Of a stretch of 54,172 bases of DNA, positions 6,960 to 46,057 are shown piece by piece. The stretch covers positions 1-54,172 of the forward strand of contig CAYTKP010000003.1 of assembly GCA_964438695.1 (NCBI GenBank), read 5' to 3'. The stretch's first letter is position 1; the number at the start of each line of letters is the position of its first letter. The position numbers and the translations under genes were made by a program. This stretch comes from an uncultured Atribacterota bacterium (GTDB lineage Bacteria > Atribacterota > Phoenicimicrobiia > Phoenicimicrobiales > Phoenicimicrobiaceae). Under the pieces are notes generated by a model that saw only the letters and a list, made by a program, of their open reading frames with translations, made no database searches and had not been told where the DNA came from.

Positions 6960-6967
6960 AAAAATTG

Positions 6968-22990: not shown

Positions 22991-24370
22991 ATGATTGAGA
23001 AGAAATTACATATACATTTCATAGGTATTGGTGGAATAGGCATGAGTGGTTTAGCTTCCATACTTCTTGATTTAGGTTATAAAATAAGTGGTTCTGATCT
23101 TATAAATTCGAAGATAACTAGGAGATTAGTAGAAAAAGGGGCAACTATTTTTAAGGGCCACAATAGAAGTAACATAGAAGGAGCGGATTTAATAGTAATT
23201 TCAACAGCAATACCTCAATCTAATCCTGAGGTTAAAGGAGCTTTAGAAAAAAATATCAGAGTGATTAGAAGGGCTGAAATGCTGGCAAAAATTGTGGAGG
23301 ATAAGTATTTAATAGCAATTTCGGGAACCCATGGCAAAACTACTACTACTTCAATGATAAGTCTTTTATTGGAAAAAGGTGGATTTGACCCCTTGGTGTT
23401 GGTAGGTGGAGAGGCAGATAATATTCGAGGAAATGCAAAATTGGGATTTGGGAAATATGCAGTCGCTGAAGCTGATGAGAGTGATGGCTCATTTTTAAAA
23501 TTAAATCCATTTTTAGCGGTAGTTACCAATATTGAAGATGATCATTTGGATTATTATGAAAACTTAGAAAACATTTCAAAAGATTTTAAAACATTTATTA
23601 GCAGAGTCCCAGATGATGGTAGGGTAGTATTGTGCAAAGATTGCGAAAATGCAAGGAGATTGATGTCAGATTGTAGAAAAAAATTTATTACTTATGCAAT
23701 ATCTGCTGATGCCGATATTGTTGCGAAAGAAATAAAATTAGATATATTAAGTTCTGAGTCGCAAATATATTGGCAGAATAAAAAAATGGGGAAGCTCAGA
23801 TTAAATGTTCCAGGATATCATAACATATCAAATGCTTTAGCGGCGATTTCCGTGGCAAAAGAATTAGGGATGAAATTTAGTGAAATTGTCGAAATACTAA
23901 AAACATATCAAGCAGTAGAAAGAAGAATGGAAATTATAGCTAACCTAGATAATGGAATATTAGTGCTAGATGACTACGCCCATCATCCCACTGAAATAAA
24001 GGTTACCTTAAAGGCTGTAAGAGAAAGTTGGAAAAATAGAAGGATAATAGTTGTCTTTCAGCCTCACAGGTACACTAGAACTAAAATGTTGGCTAAAAAA
24101 TTTGGTGAGGTATTTTTTAGTGCCGACAACGTAATTATCAATGATATTTATCCTGCAAATGAAATGCCAATTTCAGGTATTAGCGGTGAAACAATATTTA
24201 ATGAAATAAAAAAAACTAACCATGGTCATGTAAAATATATACCGGCCAAAAAGGACACTGTAGATTATCTCAGTAAAATTATAAGAGCAGAGGATATAAT
24301 AATAACTATGGGGGCTGGGGATGTATGGACAATTGGTCAGGAATTAGTTAAACGATTAAAAAGTAAGTAA
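22991..24370 (+). CDS. murC: UDP-MurNAc:L-alanine ligase
   Basis: HFIGIGGIGMSGLA, GTHGKTTTTSM and DDYAHHP. Confidence 0.93.
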   Translation: MIEKKLHIHFIGIGGIGMSGLASILLDLGYKISGSDLINSKITRRLVEKGATIFKGHNRSNIEGADLIVISTAIPQSNPEVKGALEKNIRVIRRAEMLAKIVEDKYLIAISGTHGKTTTTSMISLLLEKGGFDPLVLVGGEADNIRGNAKLGFGKYAVAEADESDGSFLKLNPFLAVVTNIEDDHLDYYENLENISKDFKTFISRVPDDGRVVLCKDCENARRLMSDCRKKFITYAISADADIVAKEIKLDILSSESQIYWQNKKMGKLRLNVPGYHNISNALAAISVAKELGMKFSEIVEILKTYQAVERRMEIIANLDNGILVLDDYAHHPTEIKVTLKAVRESWKNRRIIVVFQPHRYTRTKMLAKKFGEVFFSADNVIINDIYPANEMPISGISGETIFNEIKKTNHGHVKYIPAKKDTVDYLSKIIRAEDIIITMGAGDVWTIGQELVKRLKSK

Positions 24371-29249: not shown

Positions 29250-29696
29250 ATGAAATGCCCATTTTGTGATTATGGCGATACCGGAGTTATTGAATCCAGG
29301 CAAATAGAAAATGAATCTGTAGTCAGAAGGAGAAGGATTTGTAAGAAATGCAATAGGAGATTTACTACTTATGAGAGAATAGAATTAATTCCTTTAATGG
29401 TAGTAAAAAAAGATGGACGTAGAGAGCCTTTTTCTCGCGAGAAGATTACTAATGGCATTATTAAGGCCTGCGAAAAGAGACCTATTAGTATAGAAACTAT
29501 TAATAAATTAGTAAATAAGATTGAAGAAAAATTAAAAAATGAAACTCCAGATGAAGTAAGTAGTAGTATTATTGGAGAATTAGTTATCTCTGAATTACGA
29601 ACATTAGATGAAGTAGCCTATGTGAGATTTGCTTCTGTATATAGACAATTTAAAGACGTAAATAGTTTTGTAAAAGAGATAAATAAGCTTACCTAA
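29250..29696 (+). CDS. nrdR: transcriptional repressor NrdR
   Basis: MKCPFC...CKKC zinc ribbon followed by an ATP-cone (VVKKDGRREPFSREKI). Confidence 0.95.
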   Translation: MKCPFCDYGDTGVIESRQIENESVVRRRRICKKCNRRFTTYERIELIPLMVVKKDGRREPFSREKITNGIIKACEKRPISIETINKLVNKIEEKLKNETPDEVSSSIIGELVISELRTLDEVAYVRFASVYRQFKDVNSFVKEINKLT

Positions 29697-29749
29697 CCAT
29701 AAAATATTAATTCAATATTGCAACTGCATTTAGAATTGGGGGATACAAG

Positions 29750-32194
29750 GTGCTAAAATCAATTATAAAAAGAGAAGGCAATATCGTAGAGTTCAATGAA
29801 AATAAGATAACTTATGCAGTATTAGCCGCGATGCAATCAGTTGGGGAGAAAGATCAGGATGTTGCAAAAAAAATTACTGAACAAGTAGTTAATAAATTAG
29901 AAGAAATTTATAAAGATAAAATTCCTCAGGTGGAAGAAGTTCAAGATGTAGTAGAAGAGACTTTGATTAGGGGAGGAATGGCAAAAGTTGCCAAAGCCTA
30001 CATATTATATCGAGATAAGAGACGTAGAATTCGAGAAAAATTAAAAGTGAGGAAAAAAATACAAAATCATAGAAGTACAACTGATATCTCTTTATTAGTT
30101 TCCACAACAACTTCTGAAAATATTTCCCCTTGGAATAGACAGAAAATCATTCAAGCTCTGACAAAAGAAGCGGAGTTGCCCTTAAATATTTCCAGAAGTA
30201 TTGCCAAAGCAGTAGAAGAAAAAATATTTGACTTAGATTTAAATGAGATATCTACTTCCTTGATTAGGGAATTAGTGGATAATGAATTGTTTATTCGAGG
30301 ATATGAACATAAATGGAAAAAACAAAAGGTTATAGGAATGCCTACTTATGATTTGACCCAGCTCTTTTTCTCTAAAACTAAAGAGAATAGTAATATAGGA
30401 AATAATAATCCAGAAGCTATTAATTTAGCTATCGCTGAAAATACTATTAAGCAATATATGTTACAAGAAGTATTTTCGCGGGAAGTAGCTCAAGCTCATT
30501 TAAAAGGCTGGATTCATATTCATGATTTAGGTTACCCCCGAATTTATTGTTCCGGTCATTCACTTGAATATTTAAAAAAATATGGTCTTGAGTTAGATAA
30601 TCTGGATACCTCTTCCGCACCAGCAAAACATACCCGAACTTTAACTGGGCACTTGAATACGTTTCTAGCTTCAATGCAGGCGTATTATGCAGGTGCATTG
30701 GGCATTGGGTATTTGAATATTATGTATGCCCCCTTTTTAGTAAATTTATCTTTTAAGGAGATAAAACAGGAAGCCCAATATTTAATTTTTAGTGGCTCAC
30801 AAAATGCTTTTTCCAGAGGGGGGCAAAGTCTTTTTCTTGATTTCAATGTCCATCTTGGTATCCCGGACTACCTTAAAGATGTTCCGGCAATTGGACCTGG
30901 AGGAAAGTATACTGGAAAGAATTATGGGGAATATGAGAAGGAATCTCAATTATTTTTAAAGGCTTTAATGGAGGTCTGGAGAGAAGGTGATTGCCACGGA
31001 AAGGTATTTGCTTTTCCCAAAATGGACTTGCATATTGATAATGATTCTTTTCGGGACCCTGAGCAGAAAAAATTATTAAAATATGCTTGTCAGATAGCTT
31101 CGGAAAATGGATCGCCATATTTTATTTTTGACAGAGATGATATAAGTATGGCAGCCTGTTGTAGGTTGAAAACCAAAATAACAGACAAAGAAATGATATT
31201 AAAACCTGAAAAATTAAGATTTGCAGGGATACAAAATGTTACTATTAATTTACCTCAGTGTGCCTATAGAGCCTTTTGCAATGTAGAAGCTGTTGAAGAG
31301 AACTTTAAGGATAATGGTCAAAAAAAGAGTCTTGATTTATTTTTTAAAAAAGTTGATCAAGCCATTAAATTAGCAATTCAAGCACATCTAGAGAAAAAAG
31401 ATTTTTTGAAAGCGATGATGAAAAATCCAAATGGTCCTTTATGGCAGATAGGTAAGATAGCAAAAGATGGAAGTCCTTATGTAGATTTAGATAAGGGAAC
31501 TTACTTAGTAGGCTTGATTGGACTAAATGAGGCTGTTCAATATCTTATAGGTGAGGAATTACATGAGAGTGAAAATGCCTATAAACTAGGATTAAAGATT
31601 ATATCATTTATGAGTTTAAAATGTAGCGAATATAGTGAGAAGTATAATTTAAAATTGTCTTTAGAAGAATCTCCTGCTGAAAGCGCAGCTGGAAGATTAG
31701 CTAAAATTGATTTACAAGAGTTTCCGGAAAGCAGAAAAGTTATAAAAGGCAATCCTGAAATTGATGAATGTTATTATACTAATAGCATTCATTTTGCTGC
31801 TTCAGCTCAGATAGATTTAATAACTCGAATCATTAAACAAAGTAAATTTCATCCCTTGATTAAAAGTGGGGCAATAATTCATGCTTTTGTAGGGGAACAC
31901 CAACCTTCCCCCGAAAGCATATATAATTTAGTCAAAAAAGTTTGGGAGCATACTCAATGTTCGCAACTTACTATTTCCCCTGAATTTACCGTATGTAATT
32001 TATGTAATAAAGTAAGCAGAGGGCTAATAGAGAATTGTAGTAATTGTGGGAGCCAGGATGTGTATGGAATTACCAGGATAGTGGGTTATTTTAGTAAAAT
32101 ATACAATTGGAATAAAAATAAAATTGGTGAACTAAAAGATCGACATTCTGGAAATTATAGAGTAGATACACAAAAAAAAGAAATTTATTTATAA
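29750..32194 (+). CDS. nrdD: anaerobic (class III) ribonucleoside-triphosphate reductase
   Basis: Two N-terminal ATP-cone-like segments. C-terminal Zn ribbon CNLCNK...CSNCGS, followed by the glycyl-radical motif TRIVGYFS. GTG start after GGGGGA. Confidence 0.9.
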   Translation: MLKSIIKREGNIVEFNENKITYAVLAAMQSVGEKDQDVAKKITEQVVNKLEEIYKDKIPQVEEVQDVVEETLIRGGMAKVAKAYILYRDKRRRIREKLKVRKKIQNHRSTTDISLLVSTTTSENISPWNRQKIIQALTKEAELPLNISRSIAKAVEEKIFDLDLNEISTSLIRELVDNELFIRGYEHKWKKQKVIGMPTYDLTQLFFSKTKENSNIGNNNPEAINLAIAENTIKQYMLQEVFSREVAQAHLKGWIHIHDLGYPRIYCSGHSLEYLKKYGLELDNLDTSSAPAKHTRTLTGHLNTFLASMQAYYAGALGIGYLNIMYAPFLVNLSFKEIKQEAQYLIFSGSQNAFSRGGQSLFLDFNVHLGIPDYLKDVPAIGPGGKYTGKNYGEYEKESQLFLKALMEVWREGDCHGKVFAFPKMDLHIDNDSFRDPEQKKLLKYACQIASENGSPYFIFDRDDISMAACCRLKTKITDKEMILKPEKLRFAGIQNVTINLPQCAYRAFCNVEAVEENFKDNGQKKSLDLFFKKVDQAIKLAIQAHLEKKDFLKAMMKNPNGPLWQIGKIAKDGSPYVDLDKGTYLVGLIGLNEAVQYLIGEELHESENAYKLGLKIISFMSLKCSEYSEKYNLKLSLEESPAESAAGRLAKIDLQEFPESRKVIKGNPEIDECYYTNSIHFAASAQIDLITRIIKQSKFHPLIKSGAIIHAFVGEHQPSPESIYNLVKKVWEHTQCSQLTISPEFTVCNLCNKVSRGLIENCSNCGSQDVYGITRIVGYFSKIYNWNKNKIGELKDRHSGNYRVDTQKKEIYL

Positions 32195-32219
32195 TAAATT
32201 AGAAAGGGCTAAAAGTATT

Positions 32220-32483
32220 ATGAAAGTAAAAATATTCTGGCAAAAAAATTGCCCTAATTGTCCAAAGGCTAAAAAATTAGGAAAACAGTTAGAAGAAAAA
32301 AATATATTAGTACAATATTTTGATGTAAATACAGTCGATGGATTAACTGAGGCTTGTTTATATGATATTTTATCTACCCCTTCTTTGGTAATTACCGACA
32401 AAGATGATAATGAGATTAAAGCATGGAAAGGTCAGGTTCCTTTTTTAGAAGAGATTGTAAAGGAAGTAGTTTATCAAAAATGA
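32220..32483 (+). CDS. small thioredoxin/glutaredoxin-fold protein (CPNC active site)
   Basis: 87 aa with the pattern KIFWQKNCPNCPKAK...STPSLVI, as in thioredoxin-fold redoxins. Wedged between nrdD and nrdG. Confidence 0.6.
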   Translation: MKVKIFWQKNCPNCPKAKKLGKQLEEKNILVQYFDVNTVDGLTEACLYDILSTPSLVITDKDDNEIKAWKGQVPFLEEIVKEVVYQK

Positions 32484-33190
32484 TAATAAAGAGAATGATT
32501 GATACTTCGCTAATCGATTGGGAGGGTAAAATTGTATCCACCTTATATGTATCTTCTTGTAATTTTCGCTGCCCCTTTTGCTATAATTATGATTTAGTAT
32601 TAAATCCTAATAATTTCTCCAATATCTCCTCCAAAGAAATAGATAGTTCTCTCCTGGAGAGAAAAAAATTTATCGATGGTATATGTATGAGTGGTGGAGA
32701 GCCTACATTATATCCAGATTTACCTACATATTTTAAAGGAATCAAGGAAAAAGGATTTTTAATTAAGTTAGATACTAATGGTACGAATCCTAAATTATTA
32801 GAAGAACTTTTAAATGATGAGTTAATAGATTATATTGCTATGGATATCAAGTCCTCACTGAATTTTAGTGATTATGCCAGGGCAGCTGGCATCAAAGATA
32901 AAATATTATTAGAGAGAGTAAAAGATAGTATTAGATTAATTATGAGCTCGCAAATTGAATATGAATTTCGTACTACTGTTGTTCCTTTGTTACATACGGA
33001 AAAGACTATTATAGAAATTGCTAAATATATTTCAGGGGCAAAGAAGTATGTCTTGCAGAATTTTTCTCCTTCAGAAAGTACCCTTGAACCTTCTTTTCAA
33101 AAGATGAAGCCTTATTCCAGTGAAAAGCTCGTAGAACTGTCTGAGAAGGCTAAAGAGTACGTTCCTAATTGTTATTATAGATTAAGTTAG
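32480..33190 (+). CDS. nrdG: anaerobic RNR activating enzyme (radical SAM)
   Basis: SLIDWEGKIVSTLYVSSCNFRCPFCYN (CxxxCxxC) and GGEPTL. ATG 32480 forms an ATGA overlap with the upstream stop; the ORF-track start at 32423 was rejected. Confidence 0.85.
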   Translation: MIIKRMIDTSLIDWEGKIVSTLYVSSCNFRCPFCYNYDLVLNPNNFSNISSKEIDSSLLERKKFIDGICMSGGEPTLYPDLPTYFKGIKEKGFLIKLDTNGTNPKLLEELLNDELIDYIAMDIKSSLNFSDYARAAGIKDKILLERVKDSIRLIMSSQIEYEFRTTVVPLLHTEKTIIEIAKYISGAKKYVLQNFSPSESTLEPSFQKMKPYSSEKLVELSEKAKEYVPNCYYRLS

Positions 33191-33379
33191 AAAATTTAGT
33201 AATTAATAAATCGTTAGTGAATATTGTTTAGAGTTGAATACGAGTTTTCAGTTAGCAGTTTTGGTTTTTTATTTCATTAGTAGTCGAATTTATCTGACCA
33301 GTATTTTGCGAATTTTATAAATTAAATTCTTGCAACAAACTGATCCTTACTGTTAAGCTTAAGCTGAAATTTAATAGCG

Positions 33380-33543
33380 GTCTTTATTGAGAAAAAAATA
33401 AAGAAGTCGAAGAGGTAAAATGCTAAAGTATCTAAACTATAAGGTAAAGCGAACATTACCTTATAGAAGGCTGGAAAGTTTTTTAATAAACACCGAAGGG
33501 GTAATTTTCAATATTTTGGAAAAATCTCTCAGGTAAAAAGATA
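33380..33543 (+). promoter_or_regulatory. glycine riboswitch: one well-conserved aptamer preceded by a degenerate or ghost aptamer
   Basis: Aptamer at ~33467-33543: CTGGAAAG (33471), CACCGAAGGGGTAA (33491-33504), P3 hairpin TTTTC/GAAAA, and CTCTCAGGTAAAAAGA (33526-33541). These match the GGAGAG / CACCGAAGGGGCAA / CUCUCAGGCAAAAGGAC core. Upstream there is a degenerate copy (GTCGAAGAGGTAA 33406-33418; CTATAAGGTAAAGCGAAC 33437-33454) and an 11-bp hairpin (33437-33466). Confidence 0.7.
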
Positions 33544-33581
33544 GGGTAAAGAAATTTTGTGGAAATTTCTTTACCCTTTTT
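33544..33581 (+). terminator. riboswitch expression-platform terminator
   Basis: Perfect 14-bp stem GGGTAAAGAAATTT/AAATTTCTTTACCC plus TTTTT. Its 5' arm abuts or overlaps the 3' end of the aptamer, consistent with a glycine-ON design. Confidence 0.75.
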
Positions 33582-33614
33582 AATTTAAAAAATTTTTAGA
33601 AAGGAAGAGATAGT

Positions 33615-34442
33615 TTGAACCGAAATTTTAAGTTAGAAGAATCTGGACAAATAAAATATCTAAAATGTAGACCATTAGATAACACCGACTTGGTAATCAA
33701 TGCTTTTACCACTCGCTTGGGTGGAGTAAGTAAATATCCCTTTGATAGCTTGAATTTATCTTATAATATTGGCGATAAAGAGAGTTGTGTTGTAGAGAAC
33801 AGAGAGATAATTGCTAATATTTTGGGTATCAGTTATCGAAATATTGTATCTGCACAACAAATTCACAGAGATAAAATAACTGTGGTTAGAGAAGAAGATA
33901 AAGGAAGAGGAGCTTTCAAATATACTAAGGCTTTAGCAGAAACTGATGCTTTAATTACCAATGTCTCTAGAATTCCGCTTTTAATGTGTTATGCTGATTG
34001 TGTACCAATTTTTATCTTAGATCCCATCAAGAAAGTTATTGGATTAATCCATAGTGGAAGGAGAGGGACGGAACTGCAAATAACTTCAAAGACCTTAAAT
34101 AAGATGCAAGAAATATTTGACACAAATCCTCAATCTTGCTTAGCTGCTATTTTTCCTTCCATTGGTCCGTGTTGTTACAAGATTAAAAATCAAAGTCGAA
34201 TTAATGATTATTGGATGAACAAGAATAATTTTAGCCATAAAATAGTCTCTATACAAAACGAAAATGAACTAAGCCTTGATTTAAAAAAAGCAAATTATTT
34301 ACAGCTAATCAAAGGTGGAATAGAAAAAAAGAATATTTTTGTTAATGAAATTTGTACAGCAGATTATCCAAAACTTTTCTTCTCTTACCGAAGAGATAAA
34401 GGAAATACAGGCCGTATGGCTGCTATCTTTATGTTAAAATAA
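33615..34442 (+). CDS. pgeF: YfiH/PgeF (YlmD) family protein: peptidoglycan editing factor / purine nucleoside phosphorylase-laccase domain
   Basis: FTTRLGGVS, SLNLS, AQQIHRDK, DALITN, CYADCVPI and IHSGRRG motifs of DUF152/YfiH. TTG start after AGGAAGAG. Confidence 0.8.
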   Translation: MNRNFKLEESGQIKYLKCRPLDNTDLVINAFTTRLGGVSKYPFDSLNLSYNIGDKESCVVENREIIANILGISYRNIVSAQQIHRDKITVVREEDKGRGAFKYTKALAETDALITNVSRIPLLMCYADCVPIFILDPIKKVIGLIHSGRRGTELQITSKTLNKMQEIFDTNPQSCLAAIFPSIGPCCYKIKNQSRINDYWMNKNNFSHKIVSIQNENELSLDLKKANYLQLIKGGIEKKNIFVNEICTADYPKLFFSYRRDKGNTGRMAAIFMLK

Positions 34443-34467: not shown

Positions 34468-34773
34468 ATGCGAATAAAAGAACATCCTATCTTAGAGTTT
34501 AATCCAGGGAGAAAAATAAGATTTTATTTAGACGGAAAAGAGATGGAAGGCTACGAAGGAGAACCAATTGCTTCCGCCATAGTTGCTGCTGGAGTAAAGG
34601 TATTAAGTAGGAGTATTAAGTATCATCGACCTCGAGGATTCTTTTGTGCTATAGGCAAATGTTCATCTTGTCTAATGAAAGTAAATGGCATCCCTAACGT
34701 AAGGACTTGCGTAACTAAATTGGAAGAAGGGATGAAGATTGAGACTCAAAAAGGGAAAGGTGATTTCAATTGA
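34468..34773 (+). CDS. (2Fe-2S)-binding subunit (SoxA N-terminal / HcnA-like)
   Basis: 101 aa with YHRPRGFFCAIGKCSSCLMKVNGIPNVRTCVT, the Fer2_4-type cysteine pattern. Confidence 0.7.
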   Translation: MRIKEHPILEFNPGRKIRFYLDGKEMEGYEGEPIASAIVAAGVKVLSRSIKYHRPRGFFCAIGKCSSCLMKVNGIPNVRTCVTKLEEGMKIETQKGKGDFN

Positions 34774-35873
34774 AAGAGACTGATATATTAATTATCGGAG
34801 GAGGCCCAGCAGGATTATCGTCAGCAATTTATGCAGCCTCTTTAGGAGCGAAAATAACCTTAATTGATGACGGTTTAGAATTGGGTGGTCAATTGATCAA
34901 GCAGACCCATAAATTTTTTGGTTCGGAGGCACAGTTTGCGGGGATTAGAGGAATAGAGATTGCTAAAAAATTGATTCAGGAAATCGAAAAATATGGAAAT
35001 ATTGAACTGATTACCAATTCAACTGTCACTGGATATTACGAAGATGAGGTTATTACCATTGTCCAGGGAATCGATGGCAGTGTATTAAAAAAACTAAAAG
35101 CCAAAAGAATTATTGTCGCTACTGGTGCCTCAGAAAATATGCTACCTTTTTTAAATAATGATTTGCCAGGAGTCTATGGAGCTGGGGCTGTCCAAACTCT
35201 AATGAATCTTTACGGGGTAGTCCCAGGGAATAATGTTTTGATGATAGGAGCAGGTAATATAGGTTTAATTGTCAGTTATCAACTTTTGCAAGCAGGGATT
35301 AAAGTAGCAGCAGTTGTGGAGGCTCTCCCCCGGATAGGTGGTTATCTGGTTCATGCCTCCAAAATCAGGCGTTTAGGGGTGCCTATATATACTTCTTGTA
35401 CCTTAAAAGAAGTGTATGGAACAAATTGTGTAGAAAAGGCAGTAATTTCTGAGATTAACAAAAATTATGAATTTATACCGGGAACAGAAAGAGAGCTCGA
35501 AGTAGATACTATTTGCCTGGCTGTGGGGCTATCTCCGCTTTCTGATCTCCTCTGGCAGGCTGGTTGTCAGATGAAGTATATTCCTGAGCTCGGTGGTTAT
35601 GTTGCTCTAAGGGATGAAAATATGAAAACAACCAAAGATAACATTTATATTGCCGGTGATGTTGCCGGGATTGAAGAAGCTAGCAGTGCTATGTTAGAAG
35701 GGCAAATTGCTGGCTTGAATGCAGCTGTTAGCTTAGGATTAAAATGTGGTAATTATCTAGAGCGAAATAGAAAATTAAAGGAAGAATTAGGGGCATTGCG
35801 GGCTAACCCTTTAAGCAAGAAGATAAAGGTAGGAATAAAAAAAGCTTTAATTAAGGGGGAGGGGGATTGGTAA
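34770..35873 (+). CDS. FAD/NAD(P)-binding pyridine nucleotide-disulfide-family oxidoreductase subunit
   Basis: DILIIGGGPAGLSSA (FAD), VLMIGAGNIGL (NAD) and IYIAGDVAG. TTG start overlaps the upstream stop (TTGA). Confidence 0.75.
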   Translation: MKETDILIIGGGPAGLSSAIYAASLGAKITLIDDGLELGGQLIKQTHKFFGSEAQFAGIRGIEIAKKLIQEIEKYGNIELITNSTVTGYYEDEVITIVQGIDGSVLKKLKAKRIIVATGASENMLPFLNNDLPGVYGAGAVQTLMNLYGVVPGNNVLMIGAGNIGLIVSYQLLQAGIKVAAVVEALPRIGGYLVHASKIRRLGVPIYTSCTLKEVYGTNCVEKAVISEINKNYEFIPGTERELEVDTICLAVGLSPLSDLLWQAGCQMKYIPELGGYVALRDENMKTTKDNIYIAGDVAGIEEASSAMLEGQIAGLNAAVSLGLKCGNYLERNRKLKEELGALRANPLSKKIKVGIKKALIKGEGDW

Positions 35874-36370
35874 TGTTAGAAAGAACTGGAATTCCTACTG
35901 AGGATGATTTAAAGAAAGTAATTCCAGATAAAGAAAGATTGGCGAAAGGACCAGTAGTTATAGTAGAATGTTTCCAGAAGATACCCTGTAATCCTTGTGC
36001 CATATCCTGTAAATTTGGGGCAATAAAACCATTTGAGGACATTAATGATTTACCTCAGGTTGATTTTGATAAATGTACTGGTTGCGGAATCTGCATTAGT
36101 TCTTGTCCCGGTCTTGCCATATTTGTGATAGATGAAAATTATTCAGACAAAGAAGCTTTAATTAAATTGCCATATGAAATGTTACCCTTACCCCAAGAAG
36201 GAGAAGAGGTTTATGCTTTAGATAGAGCTGGGGAAGTAGTTGATAAGGTTAAAGTAGTAAAGGTTCAAAAGATTAAAAATAAGACCAACATAATTTCTAT
36301 ATTAGTTCCCAAAAATATGTCAATGACAGTTAGGAGTATAAAAGTGGAGGGTAAAAATAATGAAGGATGA
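35867..36370 (+). CDS. 4Fe-4S ferredoxin-domain subunit
   Basis: CNPCAISC and CTGCGICISSCP cysteine motifs. Overlaps both neighbours, suggesting translational coupling. Confidence 0.65.
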   Translation: MVMLERTGIPTEDDLKKVIPDKERLAKGPVVIVECFQKIPCNPCAISCKFGAIKPFEDINDLPQVDFDKCTGCGICISSCPGLAIFVIDENYSDKEALIKLPYEMLPLPQEGEEVYALDRAGEVVDKVKVVKVQKIKNKTNIISILVPKNMSMTVRSIKVEGKNNEG

Positions 36371-36632
36371 TGTCATAATTTGCCGATGTGAAGATATAAC
36401 CTGGGGGGAAATAAGAAGGGCATTAGAAAAAGGTTATACTACTCTCGATGAAATAAAAAGAATTACTCGAGCTGGTATGGGAAGGTGTCAGGGTAAAACT
36501 TGTCAGAGGATCATACTTAATGAAATTGCCAAATTCTGTCATAAAAAAATAGACGAATTGCCTATATCTACCTTTAGACCTCCTACCAAACCAGTGAAAT
36601 TAGGAACCTTGGCAGGTGATGATGATGATTAA
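36360..36632 (+). CDS. BFD-like (2Fe-2S)-binding small subunit
   Basis: ICRCEDIT ... GMGRCQGKTC pattern of BFD-like [2Fe-2S] domains. Confidence 0.7.
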   Translation: MKDDVIICRCEDITWGEIRRALEKGYTTLDEIKRITRAGMGRCQGKTCQRIILNEIAKFCHKKIDELPISTFRPPTKPVKLGTLAGDDDD

Positions 36633-37770
36633 AAATGCTGATATAGTTATAATTGGCGGTGGAGTAATCGGTTGTAGTATTGCCTATAACTTATCTAAAT
36701 TAGGGGCTGAAGATATAGTATTATTAGAAAAGAATACTTTAGCCAGTGGTTCAACCGGCAGATGTGGAGCAGGAATCAGACAACAGTTTGGTACTGAAAT
36801 GAACTGTATCCTGGCCCGAGAGAGTATTAAGATTTTTGAGAATTTAAGTGAAGAACTGGATTATGATATTGAACTTAATCAGGGGGGTTATTTAATCTTG
36901 GCTTATACTGAAAAAGAAGTTAATCAATTTAAGAAAAATGTAGCCCTGCAACAATCTTTAGGTATAGATTCCAAATTTATTACAGTTAAAGAAGCCAAAG
37001 AGATTGCTCCACCTCTAGATACAGAAGGTGTATTGGCTGCGACTTTTTGTTCTACTGATGGTCATGCAGATCCCTTTAAAACCAACTTTGCCTATGCGGA
37101 AGCAGCTAAGAGGTTGGGGGTAAAGATATATACCTTTACTGAAGTAAAAGAGATTGATACAAAGAACAACAGGATAGTGGCAGTTAATACAAATAAAGGG
37201 AAGATATTTACTTCAATTGTAGTAAATGCGGCTGGAGGATATTCAGGAGTAATCGGAAAAATGGCAGGATTGGATTTACCAGTCTATTCCCAACGACATC
37301 AAATATTAATTACTGAACCAGTCGATCCCTTATTTCAGCCAATGTTAATGTCTTTTTCTCATAATTTCTATTGTCAGCAGACCCCTCACGGGAGTATAAT
37401 AATGGGTTTTGGTGACCCGAATGAACCTAAAGGATATAATATAAGCTCGAGTTGGCAGTTCGCTCGAGAGATGGCTCAAAAAATGACTGCAGTAGTACCT
37501 TTATTAAAAGAGGTGAGTATGGTAAGACAATGGGCTGGTCTATATAATGTTAGTCCTGATGCCCAACCAATCTTGGGAGAACATCCTAAAATGAACGGTT
37601 TTTATATGGCAATAGGATTTAGCGGACACGGATTTATGTTAGCCCCGATAACTAGTAAGTTAATTGCAGAATTAATATTAAACGGTAGGACATCTTTATC
37701 TATTGAAGATAAATTAGATATTGGGAGATTTGAAAGAGGAGAACTAATTCTTGAACCTTCAGTAGTTTAA
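36616..37770 (+). CDS. DAO-family FAD-dependent amino-acid dehydrogenase/oxidase subunit (SoxB / HcnC / ThiO / PDH-beta-like)
   Basis: DIVIIGGGVIGCSIAYNL dinucleotide fold and GFSGHGFMLAP near the C-terminus. 384 aa. Confidence 0.8.
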   Translation: MMMMIKNADIVIIGGGVIGCSIAYNLSKLGAEDIVLLEKNTLASGSTGRCGAGIRQQFGTEMNCILARESIKIFENLSEELDYDIELNQGGYLILAYTEKEVNQFKKNVALQQSLGIDSKFITVKEAKEIAPPLDTEGVLAATFCSTDGHADPFKTNFAYAEAAKRLGVKIYTFTEVKEIDTKNNRIVAVNTNKGKIFTSIVVNAAGGYSGVIGKMAGLDLPVYSQRHQILITEPVDPLFQPMLMSFSHNFYCQQTPHGSIIMGFGDPNEPKGYNISSSWQFAREMAQKMTAVVPLLKEVSMVRQWAGLYNVSPDAQPILGEHPKMNGFYMAIGFSGHGFMLAPITSKLIAELILNGRTSLSIEDKLDIGRFERGELILEPSVV

Positions 37771-38174: not shown

Positions 38175-39341
38175 ATGAAAAGTATTAAATATTTATTAGT
38201 TATTAGTTTGTTAATATTCGCTTTTAGTGTAACTTGTTCAGGTGTAATGGCGGCAGATAAGCCACCAGTTGTAATTGGGCTTCAGGGACCGATAACTGGA
38301 GCCTGGGCATATGAAGGTCAAATGGCGAAACAATCTTGTGAGATAGCAGCCCAATTAATTAATGAAAAAGGTGGTATTTTAGGTGGTAGAATGATTGAAC
38401 TTAGAGTAGCTGATGACGCCTGTGAACCAAAAGCAGGAGCTTTAGCAGCAATGAAGCTAATTTCTCAGAAGGATGTAGTAGCTGCTATTTCGACTTATGG
38501 TTCATCAGTATGCGAACCTGCTTCTAATCTTTATGAAAAGTTTAAGAAAGTTAATATTGCTTATGGGGCAACTGCTGTTCGTTTAACTGAAAGAGGATTG
38601 AAGTACTTTTTCCGAACTTGTGGTATTGATAGTGCCCAGGGTATTTTCTTTGCGGATTATGTTCCCAGAGTTTTTGGAGCAAAGAGAATAGCTATTATAC
38701 ATGATAATACTACCTTTGCTAAAGGAGTTGCCGAAGAGACTAAAAAAGCATTGCAATCAAAGGTTGATGCGGGAGAAGTAGAGATAGTATATTATGATGC
38801 TATTACTCCAGGTGAGAAGGATTTCTCTGTTCCTTTAACTAAAGTTAGAGAGACCAATCCAGATGTCCTCTACTTTACTGGTTATTATCCCGAAGCTGCC
38901 TTAATAGTATCTCAAGCTCGAGATATAGGTATTACTTGTCCCTTTGTCGGGGGTAACGCGGCTATCAATGATGAATTTGTAAAAATTGCTGGGATAGAGA
39001 AGGCAAAAGGATGTTTTATGACTCAAGAACCTATGCCAGCAGAACTTCCCTACCCAGAATCAAAGGTATTTTTAAAAGCATATAAAGCGAAATATGGAGA
39101 AATACCTTCCAGCCCCTGGCCAGTATATGCTGCTGATGCCTTAAATATTATTGCTTACGTAATTGATAAAACCGGTTCTACCGATTCTGATATTTTGGCA
39201 GAGTATCTGAGAAATGAAGTTGATGGTGTTCCAGGAGTTACTGGTTCAATCGGTTTTACGGAAAAAGGAGATAGGGAAGGAGTTCCGTATCTAATGTATG
39301 TAGTAAACGAAGAAGGTGGCTTCGATATTTACAATAAATAA
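38175..39341 (+). CDS. ABC transporter substrate-binding lipoprotein, LivJ/LivK (branched-chain/amino-acid) family
   Basis: Signal peptide with a lipobox-like FSVTCSG, and type I periplasmic-binding fold motifs (VVIGLQGPITG, YFTGYYPE). Confidence 0.85.
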   Translation: MKSIKYLLVISLLIFAFSVTCSGVMAADKPPVVIGLQGPITGAWAYEGQMAKQSCEIAAQLINEKGGILGGRMIELRVADDACEPKAGALAAMKLISQKDVVAAISTYGSSVCEPASNLYEKFKKVNIAYGATAVRLTERGLKYFFRTCGIDSAQGIFFADYVPRVFGAKRIAIIHDNTTFAKGVAEETKKALQSKVDAGEVEIVYYDAITPGEKDFSVPLTKVRETNPDVLYFTGYYPEAALIVSQARDIGITCPFVGGNAAINDEFVKIAGIEKAKGCFMTQEPMPAELPYPESKVFLKAYKAKYGEIPSSPWPVYAADALNIIAYVIDKTGSTDSDILAEYLRNEVDGVPGVTGSIGFTEKGDREGVPYLMYVVNEEGGFDIYNK

Positions 39342-39360
39342 AAAAGTAAAGGGGTAAAAG

Positions 39361-40272
39361 ATGAGAATTTTTTTGGAGCAGATGATAAATGGACTAACAA
39401 TCGGGTCTTTTTATGCTTTAATTGCCTTAGGGTATTCTATGGTATATGGAGTAATGAAACTAATTAATTTTGCTCATGGAGATTTATTTGCTCTAGGTTC
39501 TTACCTCGGATTTACCCTTCTTGTATGGGGAAATGCCTATGTGACCACAAATTTTGGCTTAGCAGGAGGAATGATTGCGGCTATATTAATAGCCGCAATC
39601 GGCATAGGTGTGGCTGGAATATTGGTTGAGCGGATAGCCTACCGCCCGATTTATCCAGCAGGGCGGCTTCCCGCAGTCGTTTCTGCTTTAGGTGTATCAA
39701 TTATTTTAGAAAATATGATTATGGTAATCTGGGGTCCACGTTATCAGGCTTATCCTGTAGATGTTGTACCTGCAGCACGTTTTGAAATAGGTGGAATTCA
39801 TATCACACTTCTTCAAATAATTATTTTAATTCTGTCTTTTGCATTATTAGCTTTCTTATATTATGTAATTCAAAAGACAACTTTTGGGGCAGCTATTAGG
39901 GCTTCAGCTCTGGATAGGGATACTGCTGCCTTAATGGGAATAAATATAAATACTGTAATATTTTTTATTTTTGCTTTAGGTCCTGCTTTAGGTGGAGTGG
40001 CTGGAGTTATGGTAGGAATGTATTATCGTCAAATAAGTTTTACTATGGGTTGGAACTACGGATTAAAAGCTTTTACTGCTACAATTTTAGGGGGTATTGG
40101 CAATATCCCAGGGGCAATGGTGGGAGGACTTCTTTTAGGAATCTTTGAAATGTTAGGTTCTGCCTATATTTCCACAGCTTATAAGGATGTCTTTGTGTTT
40201 TTAATCCTGATATTAGTTTTAATCTTTCGTCCCAGAGGTCTTTTGGGTGAAAAAGTTGCGGAAAAGGTGTAA
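39361..40272 (+). CDS. livH: branched-chain amino acid ABC permease LivH-type
   Basis: LNGLTIGSFYALIALGYSMVYGV..INFAHG N-terminus typical of LivH. Confidence 0.88.
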   Translation: MRIFLEQMINGLTIGSFYALIALGYSMVYGVMKLINFAHGDLFALGSYLGFTLLVWGNAYVTTNFGLAGGMIAAILIAAIGIGVAGILVERIAYRPIYPAGRLPAVVSALGVSIILENMIMVIWGPRYQAYPVDVVPAARFEIGGIHITLLQIIILILSFALLAFLYYVIQKTTFGAAIRASALDRDTAALMGININTVIFFIFALGPALGGVAGVMVGMYYRQISFTMGWNYGLKAFTATILGGIGNIPGAMVGGLLLGIFEMLGSAYISTAYKDVFVFLILILVLIFRPRGLLGEKVAEKV

Positions 40273-40284
40273 GGGGGTAAATAA

Positions 40285-41268
40285 ATGAAATTAAATGGAA
40301 ATACTATTTTTAAGAACTGGCCTATTTTTATAGTAGTATTATTATTAGCAGTGTCCCCTTTTATAATGAATAATTATTGGATTGATGTCTTCTTTTTCTT
40401 CGGAATTTATGCTCTTTTAGGCTTAAGTTTGAATATTGTTTTAGGAGAAGTAGGGTTATTTGATTTGGGGCATATGGGATTTATGGCTATTGGTGCCTAT
40501 GCTACTGCTATTCTTAATACTCATTTTGGTATTCCCATAATATTTTTAATGCCAGTTAGTGCTCTGGCAGCAGCTGGTTTTGCCTGGTTAGTCTGTTCCC
40601 CTATCATTCATTTGCGAGGGGATTATCTTTGCATTGTTACTATTGGTATGGGAGAAATTGTAAGATTAACTCTTATCAATAATCCCTTTGGTATTACTGG
40701 AGGGCCAAATGGAGTTTTTGGAATAGATTTTCTTTCTTTTGGAGGCCCTTTAGTAATTGATACTTCTATTGAATCTTACTTTGTAATTTGGATAATAGTA
40801 GGATTGACCGTTCTCGCTCTTATTAATTTACAGCGTTCCCGAATAGGCCGAGCATGGAATTGTATTCGAGAAGATGAAATCGCTGCTGAATCAACTGGAA
40901 TCGATGTCAGACACTATAAACTGTTGGCTTTTATTTTAGGCGCGGGCTTAGCCGGAGTAGCTGGCAATATATATGCCAGTAAATTAATGATTGTATCTCC
41001 CGAGAGTTTTACTTTTATGGAATCCTGTATGCTTTTCTGTATAGTTCTTATTGGAGGAATGGGATCTATCCCCGGGGTATTGATAGGTTCTGCAGCTGTC
41101 AGTCTTTTCCCCGAAGTATTTCGAACATTTGCCCAGTATCGGATGTTGATATTTGGGGTAGCAATGGTGGTTATGATGATCTTTAGGCCCGGTGGCATCT
41201 GGCCCAGGAAGAGGGGAGCAATTGAATTTAAATCACTTTTACCAAAGGCAGGAGAAGACAATGTCTAA
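40285..41268 (+). CDS. livM: branched-chain amino acid ABC permease LivM-type
   Basis: GEVGLFDLGHMGFMAIGAY and ITGGPNG motifs. Confidence 0.88.
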   Translation: MKLNGNTIFKNWPIFIVVLLLAVSPFIMNNYWIDVFFFFGIYALLGLSLNIVLGEVGLFDLGHMGFMAIGAYATAILNTHFGIPIIFLMPVSALAAAGFAWLVCSPIIHLRGDYLCIVTIGMGEIVRLTLINNPFGITGGPNGVFGIDFLSFGGPLVIDTSIESYFVIWIIVGLTVLALINLQRSRIGRAWNCIREDEIAAESTGIDVRHYKLLAFILGAGLAGVAGNIYASKLMIVSPESFTFMESCMLFCIVLIGGMGSIPGVLIGSAAVSLFPEVFRTFAQYRMLIFGVAMVVMMIFRPGGIWPRKRGAIEFKSLLPKAGEDNV

Positions 41269-42115
41269 GGATAGTAATTGCAATATTGAAATAGTAAACA
41301 AAGCTGAAAACGAAATTAAAGAGATTAATGAACTTAATGAAGTTATTTTGCAAACTGTAAAATTAACTAAAAAATTTGGCGGCTTAATTGCAGTAAATAA
41401 TTTTGATTTAAAAGTAAATCGGGGAGAAATTAGTAGTCTGATAGGTCCTAATGGAGCGGGGAAAACCACTGTTTTTAATGTGGTTACTGGTATATATCAA
41501 GCTGATGGAGGGAAAGTCGTATTTAAAGGGGAAGACCTTGCCGGGAAAAAACCCCACCAAATCGTTGAAAAGGGCATTGCTCGTACTTTCCAAAATATTA
41601 GGTTATTTAATAATATGACTTGCTTAGAAAATGTAATGGCTGGCAAGCACTGTCGAAGTAAAGAAGGTGTAGGGTCTTCTATTTTTAGAACTTTTTCGCA
41701 GAGGAAGGAAGAATCAGAAATTCGAGAAATTGCCAAAAGACGCCTTCAACAGGTAGGGCTATGGAAATATCGAGATGAGTTAGCAAAAAATATTGCTTAT
41801 GGCAATCAAAGGATGTTGGAAATTGCCCGAGCTTTAGCTTCTAATCCTAATTTATTGATTTTAGATGAACCAAGTAGTGGTCTAAATGATAAAGAATCGG
41901 AAGATCTGGTAAAATTTCTTAGAGATTTATTAAAAGAAAATCTGACTATTTTACTTATTGAGCATGATATGAATGTGGTTATGGGGATTTCTGACTGGGT
42001 AACAGTAATGGACGAAGGAAAGAAAATTGCCGAAGGTAAACCAGAAGAAGTTTACCATAATCCAATTGTAATTGAGGCATATCTTGGTAAAGAGGAAGAA
42101 GAGGAGGAGGGCTAA
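41261..42115 (+). CDS. livG: ABC ATPase LivG-type
   Basis: Walker A GPNGAGKTT, signature YGNQRMLEIARAL, Walker B LLILDEPSSG. ATG 41261 is preceded by AGGAGAAG; the ORF-track start at 41192 was rejected. Confidence 0.88.
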   Translation: MSKDSNCNIEIVNKAENEIKEINELNEVILQTVKLTKKFGGLIAVNNFDLKVNRGEISSLIGPNGAGKTTVFNVVTGIYQADGGKVVFKGEDLAGKKPHQIVEKGIARTFQNIRLFNNMTCLENVMAGKHCRSKEGVGSSIFRTFSQRKEESEIREIAKRRLQQVGLWKYRDELAKNIAYGNQRMLEIARALASNPNLLILDEPSSGLNDKESEDLVKFLRDLLKENLTILLIEHDMNVVMGISDWVTVMDEGKKIAEGKPEEVYHNPIVIEAYLGKEEEEEEG

Positions 42116-42120
42116 AAGAT

Positions 42121-42858
42121 ATGAGTGTGCTGTTTAAGGTTAATGATTTACATATATTCTATGGTTCTATTGAAGCACTTAAAGGTATTTCTCTGGAAGT
42201 TAATAAAGGTGAAATAGTGACAGTTTTAGGGGCAAATGGTGCAGGAAAGAGTACTCTTTTGAGGGCAATTTCTGGTTTATTACCTATAAAAAAAGGAAAA
42301 ATCCAATTTGAGGGAAAAGAGCTCAATAATGTTTCAGCCTTTAAAATAGTTATGAGAGGTATTTCTCATGTCCCCGAAGGTCGAAAAGTATTTGCAACTC
42401 TTACTGTAGAGGAAAATCTTAATTTAGGAGCCTTTATCGATAGAAAAAATATAAAATTGGTTAAGGAAAGAAAAGAAAGAGTATATAATCTATTCCCAAT
42501 TTTAGAAAAAAGAAAGAACCAATTATCTGGGACGCTTTCTGGTGGAGAACAACAAATGTTGGCTATTGGAAGAGGTTTAATGAGTAATCCCAAGATGCTG
42601 CTTTTAGATGAGCCTTCTCTGGGTTTAGCTCCCTTATTGGTGAAACAAATTTTTAAAATAATCTATGAAATAAATAGCCAGGGTATTGCAATATTATTAG
42701 TAGAACAGAATGCCCGTAAAGCACTTAGTATAGCTCACCGAGGATATATTTTGGAAACTGGAAATATTTCAATTAGCGGATTATCTTCAGAATTAAAAAA
42801 TAACCAAAAAGTTCAAGAGGCTTATTTGGGAGGCGCTGCTCTGAAAAATATTAAATAG
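42121..42858 (+). CDS. livF: ABC ATPase LivF-type
   Basis: Walker A GANGAGKST, signature LSGGEQQMLAIGRGL, Walker B LLLDEPSLG. Confidence 0.88.
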   Translation: MSVLFKVNDLHIFYGSIEALKGISLEVNKGEIVTVLGANGAGKSTLLRAISGLLPIKKGKIQFEGKELNNVSAFKIVMRGISHVPEGRKVFATLTVEENLNLGAFIDRKNIKLVKERKERVYNLFPILEKRKNQLSGTLSGGEQQMLAIGRGLMSNPKMLLLDEPSLGLAPLLVKQIFKIIYEINSQGIAILLVEQNARKALSIAHRGYILETGNISISGLSSELKNNQKVQEAYLGGAALKNIK

Positions 42859-43987: not shown

Positions 43988-44012
43988 TAATTTTGGGGTA
44001 GTTAAAGATAAT

Positions 44013-44684
44013 CTGGAGATAATAAATAAAAGAATAAAAGAAGCAGCTTTAAGAGTAAATAGAAATCCCGATGGAATTAAGTTAGTAGCAGTTACTAAAA
44101 CTGCTACTATAGAACAGATAAAAGAAGCAATAGATGCAGGAGTAAAAATTATTGGTGAGAATAGAGTGCAGGAAGCGAAGGAAAAATATCAAATGCTAAC
44201 TGATGATATAGAATACCACTTAGTAGGTCACTTGCAAACTAATAAAGCAAAATATGCTGTGGAATTGTTTGATTTAATTCATTCTGTAGATAGTGTGAAA
44301 TTAGCTAAAGAAATAGAGAGGCGGTCCATACAGTGTAATAGAATTGTGGATATATTAGTTGAGGTAAATGTATCTGGTGAAGAAACTAAATATGGAATTA
44401 GACCTGAAGAAGTGGAACTTTTTATAAGAGAGATTTCTAGATTTTCTGGAATAAGGGTAAAAGGTTTAATGACTATTGCACCTATTGCCCAAAATCAGGA
44501 GAAAGTCCGTCCTTATTTTAGAAAACTTAGGGAATTAAGTGAGCAGATAAATGATATGAATATAGAAAATATAAAGATGGAATACCTTTCCATGGGAATG
44601 ACAGATGATTTTGAGGTTGCCATTGAGGAGGGTTCTAATATGGTTAGAATCGGCAGAGGGATATTTAGTTTAAAGAAAAATTGA
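44013..44684 (+). CDS. yggS: YggS/YlmE PLP-homeostasis protein (start codon unresolved)
   Basis: KLVAVTKT (PLP lysine), GENRVQE, HLVGHLQTNK and LSMGMTDD. The frame is open from 43956, but the first ATG/GTG/TTG is GTG 44166, downstream of the PLP lysine. 44013 is a CTG; TTG 43993 with a good RBS is one base out of frame. Confidence 0.75.
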   Translation: MEIINKRIKEAALRVNRNPDGIKLVAVTKTATIEQIKEAIDAGVKIIGENRVQEAKEKYQMLTDDIEYHLVGHLQTNKAKYAVELFDLIHSVDSVKLAKEIERRSIQCNRIVDILVEVNVSGEETKYGIRPEEVELFIREISRFSGIRVKGLMTIAPIAQNQEKVRPYFRKLRELSEQINDMNIENIKMEYLSMGMTDDFEVAIEEGSNMVRIGRGIFSLKKN

Positions 44685-45923: not shown

Positions 45924-45996
45924 GAACTTAGAATTTAAAATTCCGGCGTCAGAATATTGTTAACGTACATAGTTATACTGTTTGCCAGTTACTTAT

Positions 45997-46025
45997 GAGA
46001 TATGCGAGATACGATATGCGAGAAT
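45997..46025 (+). repeat. GAGATA-N3-GAGATA-N8-GAGAAT direct repeats abutting the ileS leader -35
   Basis: GAGATA at 45997 and 46006, GAGAAT at 46020. The 11-mer GATATGCGAGA occurs twice (45999, 46013). Confidence 0.3.
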
Positions 46026-46027
46026 GA

Positions 46028-46057
46028 TTGACATAAACTAAATTAATATGATATTAT
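46028..46057 (+). promoter_or_regulatory. promoter of the ileS T-box leader
   Basis: TTGACA (46028-46033), 18-bp spacer, TATTAT (46052-46057). Confidence 0.5.

Follow-up and report, generated by a model that had tools for sequence, protein, structure and literature searches.

The riboswitch and the gene that it precedes

We analyzed a stretch of 54,172 nucleotides from an uncultured Atribacterota bacterium (contig CAYTKP010000003.1; hereafter, the window), in which a predicted glycine riboswitch lies on the forward strand directly upstream of pgeF, a gene for a peptidoglycan editing factor of the YfiH/YlmD family. We consider that this element is probably a glycine riboswitch leading a pgeF-headed operon in the division/cell-wall (dcw) cluster, that the ancestral form in the clade was a tandem, and that the window copy is a derived singleton with a decayed aptamer 1. 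The leader and the first gene comprise the following features.

33330..33365, +, conserved leader with a putative promoter (TTGCAA at 33330-35, an 18-nt spacer, and TAAGCT at 33354-59)
33360..33466, +, pseudo-aptamer, a decayed aptamer-1 homologue according to alignments with tandem relatives, with a P2 remnant hairpin (33381-88/33397-404) and a P3b remnant
33437..33466, +, hairpin H1 of 11 bp (CUAUAAGGUAA / UUACCUUAUAG) with the loop AGCGAACA, present in minimum-free-energy (MFE) and centroid folds
33461..33554, +, glycine aptamer, homologous to aptamer 2 of the tandem, with P2, P3, P3a, and P3b intact
33543..33581, +, intrinsic terminator with a 16-pair stem, a GUG loop, and a U-tract, with homologues in the relatives
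33582..33614, +, spacer of 33 nt that leaves no room for a promoter and includes the ribosome-binding site GGAAGAG
33615..34442, +, pgeF with a TTG start (TIGR00726, PF02578)

A cmscan search with Rfam RF00504, as suggested in the initial annotation of this DNA, gave a significant match at 33461-33554 on the forward strand. It scores 45.5 bits, above the gathering threshold of 32, and E is 3.6e-6 when both strands of all 54 kb are searched and 3.3e-8 when the search covers a region of 501 nt. No other riboswitch match was found in the 54-kb window. Since a second RF00504 match was sought in 33150-33650, even at E<=10, and was not found, the window element is not a tandem. The glycine-aptamer hallmark strings that had been pointed out initially (CTGGAAAG, CACCGAAGGGGTAA, and CTCTCAGGTAAAAAGA) are all located in the aptamer. 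Besides, the aptamer preserves 18 of the 18 P2, P3, P3a, and P3b pairs of 47 related sequences described below, thus forming the expected three-way junction, and its bulges (GUAA and GGAAAAAU) are the same as in those relatives. At the junction, CCGAAGG and CUCUCAGG are exact, GGAGAG is changed to GGAAAG, and the GGAC of AAAGGAC is changed to AGAU. All 47 relatives have the same two purine changes (GGAGAG to GGAAAG and GGAC to AGAC or AGAU) in aptamer 2, which makes these changes a trait of the clade. P1 of the window aptamer consists of three contiguous canonical pairs, CUG (33471-73) with UAG (33542-44), and shares only 2 nt with the terminator. Judged from its sequence, the window element truly belongs to the glycine riboswitch class, and glycine binding by its aptamer is predicted from sequence and fold; a chance match was excluded by the covariance-model score and by the conservation in 54 loci.

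The aptamer is directly followed by the terminator, in agreement with the initial annotation, although the stem is not the perfect 14-bp helix with T5 that was described there but has 16 pairs including one G-U. Its 5' arm (33543-33558) and 3' arm (33562-33577) form 15 Watson-Crick pairs and the G-U pair around a 3-nt loop, with four G-C pairs and an energy of -18.6 kcal/mol (RNAfold), in accordance with the properties of intrinsic terminators. TTTT(AA) follows, giving UUUU after a paired U, a U-tract shorter than the UUUUUUAUUUU of the relatives. The 11-bp hairpin annotated ahead of the aptamer is present as H1, which pairs 33437-33447 with 33456-33466 perfectly (-12.4 kcal/mol) and ends 4 nt before P1 of aptamer 2; 9 of the 11 positions in the same columns of the relatives pair. 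The leader as a whole (33380-33600) folds with a z-score of -5.65 against shuffled sequences. In MFE folds, we also observed that the upstream segment 33366-33378 (GAAAUUUAAUAGC) pairs with 33470-33482 (GCUGGAAAGUUUU) and thereby engages P1, J1/2, and P2 of aptamer 2. This pairing might compete with aptamer folding and would be relevant only if the transcript starts upstream of 33366.

The product of pgeF scored 181.4 bits with TIGR00726 (cutoff, 141.15) and 245 bits with PF02578 (Cu-oxidase_4; E = 8e-73), its closest solved structures are YfiH (6DZD) and YlmD (6T0Y and 1T8H), and its homologues bear names from Atribacterota/Caldatribacteriota. In the alignment with solved YfiH/YlmD proteins, QQIH, YADCVP, and IHSGRRG coincide with the motifs of the Cys and the two His (C107, H71, and H124 in E. 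coli), and the same three motifs align in BLASTP against an E. coli YfiH sequence. The roles of the Cys and His residues in PgeF have been described (PMC12280929).

Because only 33 nt separate the terminator from the start codon, transcription of pgeF must cross the terminator. A motif of about 35 nt (TTAAAAAATATTnnnAAAAAGnAGAGATAATTTG, 33582-33617), together with the TTG start, is kept in all Atribacterota loci with or without the riboswitch. Upstream, a scan of 33330-33365 for the sigma-70 consensus gave no match. A homologue of this leader is retained in two riboswitch-less loci (L001 and L081), where it directly adjoins pgeF. The TAAGCT hexamer occurs in tandem in the window (33354-33365). 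The tandem-bearing relatives lack this insertion, which may coincide in part with the -10 region of the putative promoter.

Tandem relatives, decay of aptamer 1, and losses

PgeF scans of genome and metagenome collections yielded about 90 Atribacterota loci of the same synteny (labeled L001 and so on). An nhmmer search with the leader of L004 detected a full-length tandem leader upstream of pgeF in 54 loci (47 distinct sequences with 92% identity by column, placed about 60 nt upstream of pgeF), whereas the window and L126 matched only over aptamer 2 and the terminator. The relatives score 58-66 bits with RF00504, and their aptamer 1 (62-66 bits) has the exact canonical core (GGGAGAG, GCCGAAGGGGCAA, and CUCUCAGGCAAAAGGAC). 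RNAalifold analysis of the 47 leaders predicted P0 (UUCUG/CAGAA), a kink-turn region (GAUGA and GGAC flanks), aptamer 1 closed by the P1 helix GUAAUGG/CCAUUGC, aptamer 2, and the terminator. Compensatory changes were found at 5 of the 65 predicted pairs, e.g., from A-U to G-C in the terminator of three sequences.

P1 of aptamer 2 is a 6-bp helix (ACUCUG/CAGGGU) in the relatives, and its 3' strand, CAGGGU, is at the same time the base of the terminator stem; once CAGGGU is blocked, the L004 terminator weakens from -18.1 to -6.1 kcal/mol. Because CAGGGU is shared by the two structures, a P1 stabilized by glycine would prevent termination, and from this overlap we infer an ON-type architecture in the tandem relatives. 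The initial annotation had assigned the typical glycine-ON architecture to the window itself. This holds for the relatives but not for the window copy, in which P1 has become GGCUG/UAGGG, with 3 bp and a 2-nt overlap with the terminator. An OFF-switch reading was suggested by the type-2 singlets, which are usually OFF switches, and was rejected: the 3' strand of P1 is the 5' arm of the terminator in the relatives, and no aptamer segment is convincing as an antiterminator partner.

The segment 33360-33466 aligns column by column with aptamer 1 of these tandems. Its core is mutated in the window (GGGAGAG to TAGCGG, CTCTCAGGC to CTATAAGGT, CUCUCAGGC to CUAUAAGGU, and AAAGGACC to AAGCGAAC), the P2 remnant carries two double changes, and the old P1 is down to four A-U pairs. 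The P0 columns read AAGCUG...UAGAAGG and are unable to pair, and P0 and the kink-turn are lost. H1 is built from the former P3 3' strand/J3/1, the P1 3' strand, and the linker of aptamer 1. Thus, the degenerate aptamer-like segment, initially likened to the singlet-plus-ghost-aptamer class, has proved homologous to aptamer 1; it is not a canonical ghost aptamer, because P1, P0, and the kink-turn are lost and H1 is not a retained P1.

Sequence identity between the window and the tandem relatives differs among the parts of the locus.

4-fold sites of pgeF: about 50%
5' flank: about 55%
aptamer-1 homologue: about 61%
terminator: about 70%
aptamer 2: 90-95%

By these values, 33360-33466 is an aptamer-1 homologue that appears to have diverged nearly as far as neutral sites. 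Aptamer 2 of the window, as judged from the sequence comparisons, is clearly under purifying selection. Within the singleton lineage (the window and L161 to L164), it shows none of 78 positions changed relative to L161 (94% PgeF identity), where 4.3 changes were expected and 39 of 710 4-fold sites differ (P = 0.012), and the only difference in the terminator is one inserted C. It thus appears that aptamer 2 and the terminator are retained under purifying selection in the lineage of the window. The long near-neutral evolution of aptamer 1 beside a constrained aptamer 2 speaks for a switch that worked with one aptamer through most of the history of the lineage. L126 is an independent singleton, in which a repetitive extragenic palindrome (REP)-like sequence stands in place of aptamer 1 and P1 is intact.

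The riboswitch is missing, as confirmed with Rfam, from about 29 loci with enough upstream sequence. In the closest sister lineage (L001, L081, and L082; 85% PgeF identity), a clean deletion has removed the segment corresponding to approximately 33378-33590 of the window, so that the retained upstream leader adjoins the pgeF ribosome-binding site (L001 6725-7003 and L081 239-489). Outside the phylum, a glycine aptamer was sought with Rfam in 22 pgeF loci and was found in none (0/22). The association with pgeF is not confined to the window, as it recurs in the 54 Atribacterota loci.

A few further observations concern these upstream regions. N runs lie directly upstream of pgeF in L006 (about 6880-6980) and L019 (about 6900-7000), and the presence of a riboswitch cannot be judged in L019. 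GC-rich REP-like palindromes (e.g., GTAGGGGCAGACCTTGTGTCTGCCCGTAGG and GGGCACGATGCATCGTGCCC) are dispersed in intergenic spacers of related Atribacterota (L126 2290-2320, L117 3370-3450, L001 7870-8030, and upstream of pgeF in L003 and L014); such elements were sought in the window and none was found.

The pgeF operon and its genomic setting

Five genes for a split proline-dehydrogenase/sarcosine-oxidase-like complex and a transporter follow pgeF.

34468-34773, +, Fer2_4 protein of the split proline-dehydrogenase/sarcosine-oxidase-like complex
34770-35873, +, Pyr_redox_2 protein of the same complex
35867-36370, +, 4Fe-4S protein of the same complex
36360-36632, +, SO_alpha_A3/BFD protein of the same complex
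36616-37770, +, DAO-family SoxB-like beta subunit (SoxB/ThiO family)
38175..42858, +, LivKHMGF-type amino-acid ABC transporter, whose membership in the pgeF transcript is uncertain

The gap between pgeF and the Fer2_4 gene (fer2) is 25 nt, and the five dehydrogenase genes (34468..37770) overlap or abut. No terminator-like site was found in this gap, and the few weak intragenic matches are no more frequent than in shuffled sequences. The short gap, the overlapping genes, and the lack of a terminator indicate that at least six genes form an operon in which pgeF comes first. Thus, pgeF, named initially as the first gene controlled, is indeed the first gene downstream, but it may not be the sole target, since it heads an operon with five dehydrogenase genes. 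The spacer from the SoxB-like gene to liv is 405 nt long, with promoter-like sites and no clear terminator. In the relatives, the pgeF-fer2 gaps of 230-310 nt contain REP-like palindromes only, with neither a clear plus-strand terminator nor an Rfam match.

Among solved structures, the beta subunit is closest to 1Y56_B of Pyrococcus horikoshii (328 bits), which we take to be part of an L-proline dehydrogenase complex; sarcosine oxidase beta, dimethylglycine dehydrogenase, and glycine oxidase come next. Besides, the beta subunit is encoded beside alpha-type NAD/FAD, 2Fe-2S, and A3 modules, as expected for such a complex. Since all NCBIfam scores are below the equivalog cutoffs, only superfamily membership of the dehydrogenase is shown; homologues act on sarcosine, dimethylglycine, glycine, and proline, and the sequence alone assigns no substrate. 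The best 120 protein-search matches to the dehydrogenase were from Atribacterota only.

The window carries the complete dcw cluster of an Atribacterota (JS1-type) genome, in the following order.

RsmH, PBP, MurE, MurF, MraY, FtsW, MurG, MurC (22991-24370), MurB, FtsQ, FtsA, FtsZ
NrdR, NrdD, thioredoxin-like protein, NrdG; riboswitch; PgeF; Fer2_4, Pyr_redox_2, 4Fe-4S, A3/BFD, DAO-family beta subunit
LivKHMGF, PhoU, YggS, DivIVA, YggU, IleRS

Thus, pgeF occupies its usual dcw position, like ylmD in Firmicutes, with the nrd genes inserted before it and the dehydrogenase and liv genes after it. This synteny is kept in all Atribacterota loci that are long enough, except for three deletion variants (L092, L102, and L138) that have no dehydrogenase and liv block, so that phoU follows pgeF directly. 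L092 (3360-3420) retains the first ~20 codons of the Fer2_4 gene, and pgeF of L138 (1668-2481) appears to be interrupted, with an open reading frame (ORF) of only 206 amino acids. The nrdR-nrdD-thioredoxin-nrdG block (29250-33190 in the window) lies between ftsZ and pgeF in most lineages and is missing in L012, L016, L019, L130-133, and L141-145, where the pgeF leader directly follows ftsZ.

Elsewhere in the window, a suspected truncation of yggS was dismissed, since 43998-44684 is an intact frame of 228 codons. A class A RNase P RNA (299 bits) at 11697-12150 is 454 nt long compared with the 367-nt model; one of its hairpins (model positions 126-147) is enlarged by about 85 nt of inserted AU-rich sequence. 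A T-box leader was looked for upstream of ileS (45924-46562) and was not found in the window; 12 of 14 scanned Bacillaceae/Bacillales/Staphylococcus pgeF loci have a T-box about 3.7 kb downstream of pgeF, which corresponds to the position of ileS in the gene order of the window. The window starts with a 1642-amino-acid ORF (2031-6959).

Interpretation and comparison with known systems

The ancestral leader of the clade would have combined both aptamers and the terminator with a P0 leader-linker helix and its kink-turn. Judging from this architecture, P1 of aptamer 2, when stabilized by glycine, would withhold CAGGGU from the terminator and allow read-through (ON). In the lineage of the window, aptamer 1 would then have decayed to a pseudo-aptamer, part of which was remodeled into the stable hairpin H1. 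High glycine would lead to more PgeF, which would remove Gly or Ser misligated to UDP-MurNAc, and to more of a candidate glycine/imino-acid dehydrogenase. Bacterial PgeF has been reported to remove Gly and Ser, but not Ala, from UDP-MurNAc-amino acid, and whether its expression is regulated at all "remains to be seen" (Garde et al. 2025, PMC12280929). As noted in the initial annotation, pgeF is not known to be a member of the glycine-riboswitch regulon: in the literature searched, we found no paper linking glycine riboswitches to pgeF, yfiH, or ylmD, and no report of a split dehydrogenase cluster under a glycine riboswitch. Published glycine regulons comprise mostly glycine catabolism and transporters (PMC6239177). 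The dehydrogenase cluster fits this classical catabolic logic at least as well as pgeF does, and both readings of the target fit a "glycine excess" module. What is new here, and physiologically suggestive, is the gene context, namely, an operon of pgeF and proline-dehydrogenase-like genes in the dcw cluster; the riboswitch class itself is known.

Several points weigh against the reading of the window copy as a glycine switch that serves pgeF. The element seems dispensable, since it has been deleted in the closest sister lineage and is missing in about 29 loci; and because all copies are homologous and belong to a single phylum, the link with pgeF reflects one evolutionary event and is not recurrent. 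Aptamer 2 departs from the consensus at two conserved junction purines throughout the clade. Four of the eight P1 pairs of the model are noncanonical in the window, where a closing helix of 5-8 bp was expected, and the element lacks P0, the kink-turn, and the aptamer-1 P1, on which tandems and type-2 singlets rely as a scaffold for binding glycine. Even with UAG sequestered, the terminator hairpin of the window retains -14.2 kcal/mol, and the best antiterminated state lies 20 kcal/mol above the state with H1, the aptamer, and the terminator, whereas ligand stabilization in one glycine singlet was measured as 2-3 kcal/mol only (Torgerson et al., PMC6239177). Finally, the dehydrogenase complex (SoxB/ThiO family) is an equally plausible selected target.

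Because P1 has only 3 bp left and just 2 nt in common with the terminator, canonical glycine-dependent antitermination by the window copy seems doubtful from these folds, and the short P1 leaves the chances that this copy still responds to glycine evenly balanced. We searched the window for other partners of the terminator. The terminator 5' arm has only one further complement, the segment UUACCUUAU (33456-64) in the 3' arm of H1 (partner, AUAGGGUAA at 33541-49), and the 5' arms of H1 and of the terminator are nearly identical in the singleton lineage (CUAUAAGGUAAAG and GAUAGGGUAAAG). The H1 3' arm is thus also able to pair with the terminator 5' arm, which requires H1 to open. Antiterminators based on this 9-bp pairing or on UUACC/GGUAA stacked on the 3-bp P1 reach -15.9 and -8.5 kcal/mol, respectively, compared with -39.8 kcal/mol for H1 with the terminator, and are kept as speculation only; a covariation test of the 33456-64/33541-49 pairing is impossible because L161, L163, and L164 are identical there. 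The fuller proposal that the Atribacterota glycine riboswitch induces both PgeF and a glycine-removing dehydrogenase, and that the window copy is an ON singleton in which H1 replaces the ghost aptamer/P1, is one that we put forward only tentatively and hold to be rather unlikely in its entirety.

A more skeptical account sees the window copy as a relic that no longer switches, with the 16-pair hairpin separating the nrd genes from the pgeF operon as a leaky attenuator or insulator that acts constitutively, in a lineage heading for full loss. The short P1 with its 2-nt overlap, the strong residual terminator, and the large energy gap compared with the ligand contribution all speak for it, as do a truncated-transcript fold, in which P1 is formed in L126 and is absent in the window, and the deletion in the sister lineage amid frequent losses in the phylum. 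Against this, aptamer 2 is far more conserved than neutral sites, both toward the tandem relatives and toward L161, and a terminator by itself would have no use for a conserved aptamer core; furthermore, MFE arguments disregard tertiary contacts and cotranscriptional kinetics. We give this account a substantial chance, albeit one clearly short of even. As to the target, it is a toss-up in our judgment whether selection has acted on the downstream dehydrogenase, possibly with the Liv transporter, so that pgeF is a passenger by virtue of its ancestral position after ftsZ, an account compatible with our preferred explanation. The beta subunit belongs to the SoxB/ThiO family, whose solved relatives include sarcosine, dimethylglycine, and glycine oxidases, but its nearest characterized homologue (1Y56_B) is presumably an L-proline and not a glycine dehydrogenase. 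The dehydrogenase genes, at 81-97% identity among the top matches, surpass pgeF (68-99%) in conservation. In addition, pgeF directly follows ftsZ in L012, L016, L019, and L141-145, and pgeF of the Firmicutes dcw cluster has no riboswitch. The mainly catabolic and transport content of the published regulons agrees with a dehydrogenase target too. However, the riboswitch stands directly before pgeF in 54 of 54 loci and never between pgeF and fer2, and in L092, the riboswitch and an intact pgeF persist after the loss of the dehydrogenase and liv blocks. The substrate of PgeF, moreover, itself arises from excess glycine (PMC12280929).

Two further alternatives have little in their favor. The aptamer might sense a ligand other than glycine, since glycine-like variant aptamers of altered specificity exist (PMC9481103, citing Weinberg 2017). 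The two altered junction purines of aptamer 2 would be in line with this, as would the end-to-end alignment of the L004 tandem leader with the variant, tandem-type model RF03166 at 85.8 bits. This score is below the cutoff of 110, however, and the match reflects the shared tandem architecture; besides, aptamer 1 of the relatives has an exact canonical core with high RF00504 scores, and the window aptamer itself exceeds the RF00504 cutoff. A change of ligand is therefore very unlikely. We consider it still more improbable that pgeF escapes the riboswitch through a promoter downstream of the terminator. The ~60-nt spacer of the relatives does contain a weak sigma-70-like match (TTGATA, a 17-nt spacer, and AATATT; 9/12), but 9/12 matches are no commoner than in shuffled sequence, the 33-nt spacer of the window lacks the TTGATA box, and the riboswitch-less sisters retain the leader upstream of the riboswitch and no separate downstream promoter.

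If the Atribacterota riboswitch does induce PgeF together with a glycine-removing dehydrogenase, PgeF would for the first time be known to be under ligand-dependent regulation, and glycine sensing would be tied directly to cell-wall fidelity. The pairing in Atribacterota offers a concrete, testable case of PgeF regulation, whose rationale would be that more glycine causes more misligation and hence calls for more editing. It would also widen the glycine-riboswitch regulon to a cell-wall gene and a split dehydrogenase complex in an uncultured subsurface phylum, and the riboswitch context may hint at the substrate of this complex. Furthermore, the clade presents a series from the intact tandem through the singleton with a decayed aptamer 1 (the window) and the singleton with a deleted aptamer 1 (L126) to complete loss (L001 and L081), which illustrates the proposed degradation of tandems to singletons.

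Compared with the known proteins, the window PgeF belongs to the same family as YfiH/YlmD of E. coli, Bacillus subtilis, and Geobacillus stearothermophilus, with the same Cys and two His motifs and a dcw location, and its activity is predicted by this likeness. No regulation has been described for PgeF elsewhere, whereas the window pgeF lies behind a ligand-sensing leader in an operon with a flavoenzyme complex. That complex resembles PDH1 of P. horikoshii (PDB 1Y56) and the heterotetrameric SoxABDG in having a beta subunit with Fer2_4, Pyr_redox_2, and A3/BFD pieces and a ferredoxin-like subunit, but its alpha subunit is split into separate genes.

With regard to RNA, the window element shares the aptamer fold and the conserved core with the tandem glycine riboswitches of the gcvT type (B. 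subtilis, Vibrio cholerae, and Fusobacterium nucleatum; RF00504), and its relatives share the full tandem, P0/kink-turn, and P1-overlapping terminator (ON logic). It differs in having only one aptamer that is predicted to work, in its dcw location, and in preceding pgeF and proline-dehydrogenase-like genes instead of gcvT, gcvP, or transporters. The type-1 singlet ON switches of Listeria monocytogenes and Clostridium tetani have an ON-type terminator platform in common with it, by which high glycine induces genes, although they retain aptamer 1 with a ghost on its 3' side and the window retains aptamer 2. Like the type-2 singlet of Desulfitobacterium hafniense (Ruff 2016; Torgerson 2018), the window element is a single aptamer-2 homologue immediately preceded by an aptamer-1-derived stem-loop, here H1. 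Ghost aptamers are, however, defined by the P1 helix that remains of the lost aptamer, with its length and top base pairs conserved, and by a conserved kink-turn that positions it (Ruff 2016, PMC5066625), and this definition does not cover H1, which is not a retained aptamer-1 P1 and has neither P0 nor the kink-turn beside it. Moreover, 99% of type-2 singlets are found on transporter genes as OFF switches, and ON or catabolic contexts usually retain aptamer 1 (PMC6239177), whereas the window has an ON-type platform on catabolic and cell-wall genes. Thus, the window element fits the degradation model of Crum 2019 (PMC6944388) and yet, like the clade series as a whole, runs counter to the reported trend that ON switches retain aptamer 1.

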